64,000 bases of DNA, taken from the NCBI RefSeq assembly GCF_055900595.2, contig NZ_CM148325.1; one strand, given 5' to 3'. The translations under genes were made by a program, and so were the position numbers. The notes beneath the pieces are model-generated. The model did no database searches. It was given only the letters and a program-made list of their open reading frames with translations, and had not been told where the DNA came from. Shown piece after piece: positions 4,371-10,662 of the stretch (position 1 is its first letter; every line of letters begins with the position of its first letter).

Positions 4371-4405
4371 TAAAGAAAAGGGCAATTCCCATCAGGGAAT
4401 TGCCC
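4371..4405 (-). terminator. Intrinsic terminator downstream of the adhesin gene
   Basis: Perfect 11-bp inverted repeat gggcaattccc/gggaattgccc with a 4-nt loop, followed on the minus strand by a U-rich run (uuuucuuua). Confidence 0.6.
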
Positions 4406-4435
4406 TCAGATTGTTGATCTGGTGCGCCTTATTTT

Positions 4436-4520
4436 GCCGGATGCGGCGTGAACGCCTTATCCGTCCTACAGGAATGTGCTGAATCATCCCGTAGGTCTGA
4501 TAAGCGCAGCGCATCACGCA
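4436..4520. repeat. REP (repetitive extragenic palindromic) element pair
   Basis: gccggatgcggcgtgaacgccttatccg...ctgataagcgcagcgcatca matches the enterobacterial REP consensus. Confidence 0.75.
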
Positions 4521-4551
4521 ATTTGGCGTTTACCCATTCTTTAATGGATCA

Positions 4552-7500: not shown

Positions 7501-9363
7501 AGTCACCGTATCAGTCAGGTTAGTGATGTTGGTGGTGTTAGTTGCCACGTTATCGTTAGTGGTTTTCAACTGAGAACCGTTAACGGCGTCGGTGCTGGTG
7601 TCAGAGAGCTCGCCAGCGGTGACGTTAGTGATTTTGTTGGTGGCGTTGGTGCCGTGTGCAGCGGTGAATGCGCCTGCGGCATCGTCCCATTTCAGGGCGT
7701 CTTCACTAAGGTCAGTCACCGTATCAGTCAGGTTAGTGATATTGGTGGTGTTGGTCGCCACATCGTCCTTGGTCGCTTTCAGCTGAGAACCATTAACGGC
7801 GTCGGTGCTGGTGTCAGAGAGCTCGCCAGCGGTGACGTTAGTGATTTTGTTGGTGGCGTTGGTGCCGCGTGCAGCGGTGAATGCGCCTGCGGCATCGTCC
7901 CATTTCAGGGCGTCTTCACCGAGGTTAGTCACCGTATCAGTCAGGTTAGTGATATTAGTGGTGTTGCCAGCCACTTCGCTCGTCAGGTTAGTGATGTTGG
8001 TGGTGTTTGCCGCCACATCGTCCTTGGTCGCTTTCAGCTGAGAACCGTTGACGGCGTCGGTGCTGGTGTCAGAGAGGTCGCCAGCGGTGACATTGGTGAT
8101 TTTGCTAGTGGCGTTGTTGCCATGGGCAGCGCTGTATTTGCCATTGGTTTGGTCCCATTGCAGAGTGTTTTCATCAAGTACAGTGAGCGCATCGCCAACG
8201 TTATTTTTGTTACCATTTTTTAAGTTGTAGGCGGGGGCTTTAACTGTACCGTCGTCAACGTTTACCGATGCGCCTCCACCCAGTCGTTTTGCTACCGAGT
8301 CGCTGATGGCATAAAGCTGCGAGCCATTAATGGCGTCATTGCTGTCAGCTTTGATGGTGCCATTTTTCACATTCACGATCTTGCGTTTTAATGAGTCATT
8401 ACCGACAGAAACGCTATCGTCCAGATCCGCAATCGAACCTGCCCCCAACGCGACGGCGTTAATACCGTTGGCGCTGGTATTACTACCAAGCGCAAGACTA
8501 TTATCGCCCGTGACAACACTGGTTTTACCTAAAGCAATAGAGTTTAAGCCACTCGATTGGCTACCATTACCCAGAACGATAGCATCTGTACCATTAGCTT
8601 TGTTGCCCTGACCTATGGCAATTTCGCTATCTGCCAAAGCCTGGCTGCCATTGCCCAATACGATAGTATTGGTTTTATCGGCAAGGCTCCCGGAGCCCAG
8701 CGCCATGCTATTAGTCCCTTTTGCCTTCGCATTATTGCCAATGGCGGTAGCATTTTCAGCGGCTTCGGTGTTAGTGCCCATCGCGATGGAGTCCGTTCCT
8801 GATGCATTTGCCAATCGTCCTAATGCAAGAGCATTAGCAGCACTTGCTACCGTATCTTTGCCCAACGCCATGGCACCTTCACCTTTAGCTTGAGCAGAAT
8901 TCCCCAGTGCAAGTGTATAATCGCTGGTCGCTTTAGCTGCACTGCCGATGGCGATAGCTCGGCTGCCCGTTGATACCGTTGATTGCCCTAAGCCAACCGA
9001 TCTTTCTCCTGATGAGTTACTTGAGAAGCCAATTGCCGTACTGCCCACCCCGGCGGTCGAACCTATTCCTACCGCAACACTTCCTGTATTCTCTGTTCCT
9101 GAACCCTTTGGCTCTGATGATGCGACAGCACCTTTACCAATGGCAATCCAGTCATTACTGAGTGGCGTTGCCTCTGCGCTTTTACCACCGTCAAGTGAAA
9201 CCGAAGCATTGGCCCCAACGGGTGAGAGTAGCCCACCCGCAACCAGCGCGGAAATTAACAGCTTACTACGCCCGCTCTTTTTTCCACGACTCTTCGCCGT
9301 TTCGCTGGCAACGCTATAGCTGCCCGTCGCTGGATTCCAGATAACTTTAAAAATTTTGTTCAT
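4552..9363 (-). CDS. upaG: Trimeric autotransporter adhesin, UpaG/EhaG type (1603 aa)
   Basis: N-terminal extended signal peptide [18 protein letters not shown]; Ala/Gly/Ser-rich YadA-like head repeats; long repetitive stalk with recurring NGSQL and ALLWD/LKWD motifs; C-terminal YadA-type anchor ending ...[13 protein letters not shown]. Confidence 0.85.
7150..8230. repeat. Tandem 213-bp (71-aa) repeats inside the adhesin gene: about four near-identical copies plus one diverged copy
   Basis: Same DNA recurs with period 213 (gtgaatgcgcctgcggc at about 7239, 7452, 7665, 7878); encoded unit [68 protein letters not shown]; a second set of about three more diverged 80-85-aa units lies at about 6300..7150. 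Confidence 0.9.
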
Positions 9364-9406
9364 TATTGATGTTCTCTATTCCTTGATATAAGCGCAGAAG
9401 CTGCAT

Positions 9407-10090
9407 TTATTTTTTGTTTTTCCGCTGCTGAGTTTCAGCAGGTTGAACAGTGTCGAACTGGAGATTGGCCATATTGATGGACAATTTCAGATACTTCAGG
9501 TTATTAGGTGAAACGCCTTTTAATGTCAGGTTAATGTCTTGCCATTGACCAGGCATTAATTGCAGGGTGGAGTTCATGGTGGTGTTGAAAAGTAATTGTT
9601 GCCACTTCGACAGCGCTTTGGTATCGGTGGGTCTTTCACTGCCCCATGTGGCTTGAAAGCCAATATTTGATACGGGAACGCTTAATAGGTTGACCAGCGA
9701 AATACGAATAACGCTACCATTTTCAACTGCATCAATAGACAGCACCCGGCCTGCCAAACCAACCGAGCCATTGTTTAAAATGAAGTATTTTGTTTGTGCA
9801 GGGTTAAATTCGGTGAAGACAAATTCGTCCTGTTTGTCTTTGACCGCCTTTACTACACCCGCCAGCACTTTAGTGGTGTTTGCAATATTAATTTGTTGAT
9901 TTTCAATAAATTCTATCTTTCTTTTATATTGTTCTTGTTGTTTTTCAAGAATCTCTATTTTACTTTTTTGCAATTCTTGCTGTTTGGCAAGATCGTCGAT
10001 CAGATTCGCTTTCTCAATATAGTCACACCCAGTCAATACCCAGAGTGGCAATGTTATCAACATGCTTAATAGTGCTTTTTTGATGCTCAT
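9407..10090 (-). CDS. SadB-like lipoprotein, likely trimeric autotransporter biogenesis partner (227 aa)
   Basis: Signal peptide with lipobox LTGC; coiled-coil-prone N-terminal region (QQELQKSKIEILEKQQEQYKRKIEFIENQQ) then a beta-rich C-terminal domain; ends 43 bp upstream of the adhesin gene on the same strand. Confidence 0.6.
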   Translation of the reverse strand: MSIKKALLSMLITLPLWVLTGCDYIEKANLIDDLAKQQELQKSKIEILEKQQEQYKRKIEFIENQQINIANTTKVLAGVVKAVKDKQDEFVFTEFNPAQTKYFILNNGSVGLAGRVLSIDAVENGSVIRISLVNLLSVPVSNIGFQATWGSERPTDTKALSKWQQLLFNTTMNSTLQLMPGQWQDINLTLKGVSPNNLKYLKLSINMANLQFDTVQPAETQQRKNKK

Positions 10091-10662
10091 AGGGTGAATT
10101 CCTTTTCATGATCCCGATACGTTAACTGTTACGGCGTAATCATCCTTTTTATGAATGATTCGAGTGGAAATATACGTTATATAAATTTATAAGAGACTTT
10201 TTCTATTAATTGTTGTATTAATTGGTAGTGCGAATATGACATTAAATGTCAGACAATTTCAGATTGTAGCCAATAATATTAATCGCGCGGATTTTAATGA
10301 TCGATGTCAATCAATGTCAAATGTTTCACCGGATGAAAACACCGACCAGGAGAAATATTAATATTCAGCATGGTGATGTTTTCTTGGGAAGTGTGTGATT
10401 CTGAGCGATAAATATAAATAATTAATGGCTGTTACAGGCATTAATGTGCATTAATTCATTGTTATCGCTTATATATCACTTTTTTATTCCATACCACAAT
10501 TTCAGAATTTAGCCTGTAATATGCGCTTCAAAGAGCCGGTGAGATGGAAGCAATAGTGATAAGAATGTTAAAGATATCCGATATCTGGTATCAGGCTCCT
10601 GCATGTGCCAGCAGGAGCGAGTAAATCGTGAGAGGCTGTGATTACAGCGGTGAGACAGGTAC
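10091..10662. promoter_or_regulatory. 570-bp AT-rich noncoding leader upstream of the SadB-like/adhesin pair
   Basis: No ORF of 60 aa or more on either strand; visibly AT-rich with phased A/T tracts; also holds the 3' flank of yibL including an 8-bp-stem hairpin gctcctgc...gcaggagc at about 10594..10617. Confidence 0.5.

Follow-up and report, generated by a model that had tools for sequence, protein, structure and literature searches.

An enterobacterial sadBA-type adhesin operon and its absence from Escherichia coli K-12

Why does an Escherichia coli chromosome carry a lipoprotein gene and a very large adhesin gene at a site where the laboratory strain K-12 has neither, and which of the two states is the original one? 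The question is raised by a stretch of 64,000 nucleotides from contig NZ_CM148325.1 of RefSeq assembly GCF_055900595.2, referred to here as the window. Its minus strand carries, in order of increasing coordinate, lldD-lldR-lldP (517-4135), the adhesin gene, the lipoprotein gene, yibL (10663-11025), yibT, mtlR, mtlD and mtlA. An earlier note, made from the sequence alone, had read the pair as a SadB-like lipoprotein and a trimeric autotransporter of the UpaG/EhaG type, inserted as a strain-variable island between yibL and lldP. With a probability of about 0.93, the pair is an enterobacterial sadBA-type operon, in which a SadB-family lipoprotein gene is followed by the gene for a type Vc adhesin that is the positional orthologue of UpaG, EhaG and SadA, and it is ancestral to the site, from which K-12 has lost it by deletion.

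The layout of the two genes is as the note had described it, with a 1603-residue product ending in GIQW encoded 43 nucleotides downstream of a 227-residue lipoprotein that has the lipobox LTGC. These are the only two long open reading frames within the segment 4495-10658, and no terminator-like site was found in the 43-nucleotide spacer between them (9364-9406). The arrangement recurs in all 11 loci that were compared, where the lipoprotein gene lies directly upstream of, and co-oriented with, the adhesin gene between the mtl and lld operons. The spacing is 43-44 nucleotides in 10 of these loci and the two genes overlap in the eleventh.

The lipoprotein is assigned to the SadB family through a match along its full length. 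Residues 23-227 align to residues 3-207 of the 207 residues of the SadB chain in PDB entry 4C47 (phmmer, E=5.5e-71), a span that covers both the coiled coil and the C-terminal domain, and the two proteins share 53% identity in an alignment of 12 sequences. The coiled-coil-rich N-terminal half claimed in the note is supported by a 42-bp periodicity in the gene as well as by alignment to the coiled-coil part of 4C47. Within the 12-sequence alignment Asp23 is invariant and Cys22 nearly so, and the GCD motif occurs in 11 of 11 locus-derived lipoproteins. With aspartate at position +2 a lipoprotein avoids the Lol system and stays in the inner membrane, and from its Cys22-Asp23 pair the window protein is expected to be of the inner-membrane type. 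SadB itself is an inner-membrane trimeric lipoprotein that raises the surface display and the protease resistance of SadA (Grin et al. 2014, PMC3953254), and homologues of SadB occur in Enterobacterales only (bioRxiv 10.64898/2026.01.22.700529). A search of NCBIfam gave no family above cut-off for the lipoprotein, only an irrelevant match to the SA0632 lipoprotein at E=9e-4, and an exact 30-mer of its gene had no match among species-representative genomes. Three contigs that encode the lipoprotein were binned in metagenomes as Oscillospiraceae, Collinsella and Bacillota (L014, L017 and L018); these are almost certainly binning contaminants, since they show 68-84% identity to an Escherichia gene.

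The domain plan proposed for the adhesin, consisting of an extended signal peptide, a YadA-like head, a repetitive stalk and a YadA-type anchor, is recovered in Pfam as matches to ESPR, YadA_head, YadA_stalk and YadA_anchor, together with many stalk and neck modules and further short head insertions. Cleavage of the signal peptide is probable after GANA, at about residue 53. Among solved structures the protein matches the SadA fragments 2YO0 (E=2.3e-139), 2YO3 (E=9.5e-91), 2YNZ, 2YO2 and 3ZMF as well as the Hia anchor. The near-identical genome AP025754.1, whose flanks are 99.8-99.9% identical to those of the window, has two stalk repeats fewer and an adhesin of 1461 residues that differs at 2 residues outside the repeat deletion; stalk length changes through the gain and loss of 71-residue repeats. 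The exact 1603-residue sequence had no match in the protein collection searched because the repeat copy number differs from that of otherwise identical genomes.

A protein comparison with SadA/SadB, UpaG and EhaG, which the note had proposed as a check, gave identities of 69% to UpaG and 66% to EhaG for the adhesin, alongside the SadB match for the lipoprotein. UpaG is said to have been described from uropathogenic E. coli CFT073 by Valle and colleagues in 2008 and EhaG, reportedly, from enterohaemorrhagic E. coli (EHEC) O157:H7 by Totsika and colleagues in 2012. In CFT073 the order is yibL, a 227-residue DUF3251 lipoprotein, a 43-nucleotide gap, upaG and lldP, so that order and spacing are as in the window. 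The lipoproteins of the two strains are 79% identical, and the overall similarity of the adhesins conceals a steep gradient, with 94-99% identity over the last 600 residues and about 47-49% in the head; UpaG of CFT073 has 1778 residues compared with 1603 in the window. The positional orthologue in an EHEC-type strain is ehaG, which shares the domain plan of the window adhesin, and the accompanying lipoprotein is 64% identical. In this strain (12089; locus L007, 6692-7420) the lipoprotein gene lacks its usual stop and encodes 242 rather than 227 residues, reaching the ehaG start codon, and its 43-nucleotide spacer is therefore translated.

The correspondence with Salmonella enterica, on which the note had based its reading, is equally direct. 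The sadB and sadA genes (STM3690/STM3691) lie at the corresponding site, flanked by the mtl and lld operons, the lipoprotein shows full-length homology and the cysteine followed by aspartate, and the crystallised SadA fragments match the C-terminal 400 residues of the window adhesin very strongly. Divergence from Salmonella is strong in the lipoprotein's N-terminal coiled coil and in the head and stalk of the adhesin, and the four near-identical 71-residue stalk repeats are a feature of the window allele when set against SadA, which is 1461 residues long. The other helper described for such adhesins, TpgA of the TpgA/AtaA system of Acinetobacter, is likewise a small envelope protein encoded beside a trimeric autotransporter whose display it promotes (bioRxiv 10.64898/2026.01.22.700529). 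Unlike the window lipoprotein, with which it has no homology, TpgA consists of BamE-like and OmpA-like domains and binds peptidoglycan and the barrel.

The alleles at this locus differ from one another far more than the flanking genes do, and DNA from outside the lineage therefore enters the locus by homologous replacement. Among nine loci, identity is 70-100% in the anchor and the last 600 residues of the adhesin but 31-73% in its head, whilst in the lipoprotein it is 35-96% for the coiled coil and 56-96% for the C-terminal domain. A breakpoint lies inside the lipoprotein gene, where the E. fergusonii copy is 95% identical in the C-terminal domain and 40% in the coiled coil. The passenger and the lipoprotein coiled coil are reshuffled between strains by recombination. 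Allele-specific pairing, in which the coiled coil would co-vary with the adhesin head, was considered and is not supported by the nine loci compared: the Spearman coefficient is 0.59, compared with 0.61-0.63 for the conserved C-terminal parts, and the window and CFT073 offer a counter-example with 75% identity in the coiled coil and 47% in the head.

The order of events at the site is decided by its distribution. In K-12, as the note had stated, yibL stands next to lldP, 371 bp away with nothing between, and both genes of the adhesin operon are absent. Alignment of the interval, also suggested in the note, shows that K-12 lacks 4495-10658; CFT073 and the EHEC-type strain carry the pair. Of 5426 complete E. 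coli genomes, 4155 (76.6%) have the segment, always on the chromosome and at a median of one place per genome, so that the strain variability claimed for it is real. A horizontally acquired island that entered some strains between yibL and lldP, K-12 keeping the original empty site, would account for the empty K-12 site, for the AT-rich leader and lipoprotein gene (GC 0.33-0.40) and, given that outside DNA does enter by homologous replacement, for alleles so much more divergent than their flanks. It is contradicted by gene order, which is the same in six genera. The order mtlADR-yibT-yibL-lipoprotein-adhesin-lldPRD is found in loci of E. fergusonii, Pseudocitrobacter vendiensis and Salmonella enterica (species names as assigned by the protein sources), and likewise in loci attributed to Citrobacter braakii and Enterobacter wuhouensis. 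The G+C content of the adhesin gene, 0.49-0.55, is like that of the flanks, no mobility gene, integrase, insertion sequence or tRNA was found in the segment, and no flanking direct repeat was found at 4495 or 10658. Moreover, an 80-nucleotide probe spanning the K-12 junction finds it essentially intact in 1261 genomes, which is 99% of the 1271 that lack the segment, and this fits one deletion, inherited or spread, rather than many independent empty sites. Cross-genus order, flank-like composition, the missing mobility genes and repeats and the common junction together mean that the pair is ancestral and that K-12 has deleted it, so the 'inserted island' of the note falls away and an insertion becomes extremely improbable. 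The locus is ancestral to Escherichia, Salmonella, Citrobacter, Enterobacter and Pseudocitrobacter, and one common 6.2-kb deletion has removed it from K-12 and about 23% of the E. coli sequenced. Grin et al. (2014, PMC3953254) had already placed sadBA between the mtl and lld operons of Escherichia, Salmonella and Shigella and described a 5-kb deletion in K-12 that includes the lipoprotein gene sadB.

Two further explanations accept the ancestry of the pair and question what it does. The lipoprotein might serve the envelope in an independent role and merely lie beside the adhesin, as would be suggested by its remote paralogue YajI/DUF3251, which is unlinked to any autotransporter (PMC3953254; a weak Pfam match here), and by a coiled coil that shows no specific co-variation with the adhesin head. 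This is very unlikely, if marginally less so than an insertion, in view of the terminator-free spacing of 43-44 nucleotides in 10 of 11 loci, the overlap in the eleventh and the loss of both genes together in K-12, and SadB has been found experimentally to improve the display and protease resistance of SadA (PMC3953254). Slightly more probable, and still improbable, is that the pair is a cryptic and decaying remnant, permanently silenced and heading for the loss that K-12 has undergone. Absence from about 23% of E. coli genomes would fit such a fate, as would the missing stop codon of the EHEC lipoprotein allele, the repression of UpaG by H-NS (PMC5012682) and the fact that no natural conditions for sadBA expression are known (PMC3953254). 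Against decay, both reading frames are intact in the window, one of them over 4.8 kb, the promoter hexamers are conserved in four genera, the lipoprotein C-terminal domain and the adhesin anchor are strongly conserved, and UpaG and EhaG are functional adhesins (PMC7247748).

Some observations nevertheless weigh against the identification of the pair as a sadBA-type operon of UpaG/EhaG/SadA kind. In NCBIfam the adhesin reached no curated cut-off and gave generic trimeric-autotransporter matches below cut-off only, and a close relative is annotated merely as a 'YadA-like family protein'; strictly speaking, therefore, the adhesin is neither UpaG nor EhaG. Judged by its sequence, it represents a third allele group, or passenger type, at the UpaG/EhaG locus. 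For the lipoprotein, the match to Pfam DUF3251 is marginal (E=0.27), which is consistent with the remote paralogy to YajI that Grin et al. describe. A helper function of SadB is documented for Salmonella SadA alone, under artificial induction (PMC3953254), and we infer both the transcription start and the H-NS control of the operon.

How the sadBA-type pair might work can be outlined by analogy, with helper function, adhesion and H-NS control carried over from the published work on SadB/SadA, UpaG and EhaG. Both genes would be driven as one transcription unit by a promoter about 200 nucleotides upstream, within a leader that is probably silenced by H-NS. The adhesin would be exported by Sec by means of its extended signal peptide, after which three C-terminal anchor segments would form a 12-stranded barrel in the outer membrane via the β-barrel assembly machinery, and the passenger, with its head and repetitive stalk, would be threaded out to give a long trimeric fibre for adhesion, aggregation and biofilm formation. 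The lipoprotein would be kept in the inner membrane by its aspartate at +2 and, as a trimer, would assist in the correct surface display of the adhesin. EhaG, UpaG and SadA, which are positional orthologues, mediate binding to the extracellular matrix, aggregation and biofilm formation (PMC7247748).

The region upstream of the lipoprotein gene contains the long AT-rich leader that had been claimed (10091-10662, with a GC of 0.33 over 10001-10500). Its low GC fits silencing by H-NS, which represses UpaG (PMC5012682). The candidate promoter stands out from its surroundings: across six loci and four genera neither the TTTGACA nor the -10 region varies, in a leader whose mean column identity is 61%. 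A structured RNA leader was dropped because the leader had no Rfam match at E<=1 and the predicted fold of the putative 5' untranslated region was no better than that of shuffled sequence (z-score +0.91). The promoter is bracketed by two copies of a 27-nucleotide repeat that are 85% identical and 243 bp apart, and in the upstream copy the TCTGAAA core hardly varies among the six loci, with one substitution in Pseudocitrobacter. It is conceivable, although rather unlikely, that these repeats are operators for a regulator, possibly acting via DNA looping, that sets the conditions under which sadBA, upaG and ehaG are expressed. Further upstream, beyond the yibL stop codon, lies a short hairpin (10595-10618) in which a G-C pair has become A-T by changes on both arms in Pseudocitrobacter, so that the stem is kept.

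Table 1. Features of the lipoprotein-adhesin locus, in order of decreasing window coordinate.
Feature	Position	Strand	Basis or remark
8-bp hairpin without U tract	10595-10618	-	45 nt past the yibL stop codon; removed by the K-12 deletion
27-nt direct repeat, upstream copy	10496-10522		repeat family D17; candidate operator
Sigma-70-type promoter, TTGACA-18-TAAAAT	10291-10320	-	11 of 12 consensus positions matched; about 200 nt upstream of the lipoprotein ATG
27-nt direct repeat, downstream copy	10253-10279		repeat family D17; candidate operator
Putative 5' untranslated leader, AT-rich	10091-10284	-	start inferred from the promoter
SadB-family lipoprotein gene	9407-10090	-	227 aa, intact; PDB 4C47 match and alignment
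Lipoprotein signal peptide and lipobox LTGC, Asp at +2	10025-10090	-	sequence
Lipoprotein coiled-coil region	9830-10024	-	42-bp (14-aa, two-heptad) periodicity; 4C47 alignment
Lipoprotein conserved C-terminal domain	9410-9829	-	12-sequence alignment
Intercistronic spacer	9364-9406	-	43 nt; AAGGAA (ribosome-binding site) ahead of the adhesin ATG
Trimeric autotransporter adhesin gene	4552-9363	-	1603 aa, intact; positional orthologue of upaG/ehaG/sadA
ESPR extended signal peptide region, residues 1-47	9223-9363	-	Pfam, E=2.8e-15
YadA-like head repeats, residues 105-324	8392-9051	-	Pfam YadA_head; varies most from allele to allele
Five 71-aa stalk units (coiled coil, DALL-like motif, neck), residues 396-750	7114-8178	-	four near-identical; Tandem Repeats Finder (TRF) and direct-repeat families D1/D2
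DNA tandem repeat, 213 bp x 3.6 copies	7196-7966	-	TRF
YadA-type membrane anchor, residues 1543-1603	4555-4737	-	Pfam YadA_anchor PF03895, E=2.2e-19; Hia anchor structures 3EMO/2GR7
Segment absent from K-12	4495-10658		6164 bp against 7 unaligned nt in K-12; blastn stops at 4494 and resumes at 10659
Repetitive extragenic palindromic (REP)-like elements, containing the K-12 left deletion endpoint	4426-4520		between the adhesin stop and the terminator; K-12 comparison
Intrinsic-terminator-like hairpin, 13-bp stem then TTCTTT	4378-4407	-	145 nt past the adhesin stop codon

As a discovery the locus carries little weight, because the full picture had appeared in print beforehand: a 2014 paper (PMC3953254) covers the operon, where it lies, how the lipoprotein acts as a helper and the deletion in K-12, and the adhesins were published between 2008 and 2012. 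What the present analysis contributes is its own account of the homology, domain anatomy, gene order, distribution and deletion junction. Its useful outcomes are a corrected polarity, in which an ancestral locus with one common deletion takes the place of an insertion, together with distribution figures, exact deletion endpoints and a third passenger type whose stalk varies in repeat number. The promoter conserved across genera could in addition guide expression studies of an adhesin family that is a vaccine candidate.

At the downstream end of the operon, the terminator that the note had assigned to the pair (4380..4405) exists as a hairpin with a run of T residues at 4378-4407. It is not private to the pair, since both the hairpin and the REP-like element are kept in K-12, outside the differing segment, where the hairpin follows yibL. 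The left deletion endpoint falls inside the REP-like element, for which Rfam gives a sub-threshold match to the REP-derived naRNA4 at 4426-4466, and no convincing direct repeat or microhomology was found at the endpoints of the deletion. A sub-threshold Rfam match to the Salmonella small RNA STnc380 (4309-4415, plus strand; 34 bits compared with a gathering score of 60) runs antisense to the operon and overlaps the terminator hairpin. Beside it lies the palindrome AATTGGTAGGGCCAATT (4333-4350), which looks like an operator for LldR at the lldP promoter. Three tandem units of about 135 bp, similar to REP or bacterial interspersed mosaic elements, are found between mtlD and mtlA (13332-13752), and a 32-nucleotide core of this sequence recurs in another E. 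coli strain, where it lies downstream of the adhesin gene (L002, 3330-3361).

The lineage from which the window comes is itself unusual. Over most of its length the window is 92-98% identical to K-12, mostly 94-96%, with about 94% in the flanks of the operon, whilst the YibL, LldP and MtlD proteins are identical to those of K-12 and LldR and MtlR are 98-99% identical. That the window is not from E. coli, as the flanks might suggest, was considered and set aside: the lld operon has a match of at least 99% in 12 of about 5450 RefSeq records, which are labelled E. coli. The lineage is rare and divergent, bears the E. coli label and possibly belongs to a cryptic clade.

Elsewhere in the window, the rhsA-yibA-yibG block of K-12 is absent, with about 8 kb of K-12 sequence falling between window positions 17715 and 17748. 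Conversely, 24828-25856 (about 1 kb) and 29482-33904 (about 4.4 kb) have no K-12 counterpart in the stretch compared. Four Rfam matches exceed their gathering scores, namely a sok antitoxin RNA of a hok/sok-type locus (62577-62728, plus strand), the cspA thermoregulator leader (63011-63438, minus strand), the REP-derived naRNA4 (29507-29585, minus strand) and the small RNA ES036 (43794-43836, plus strand).

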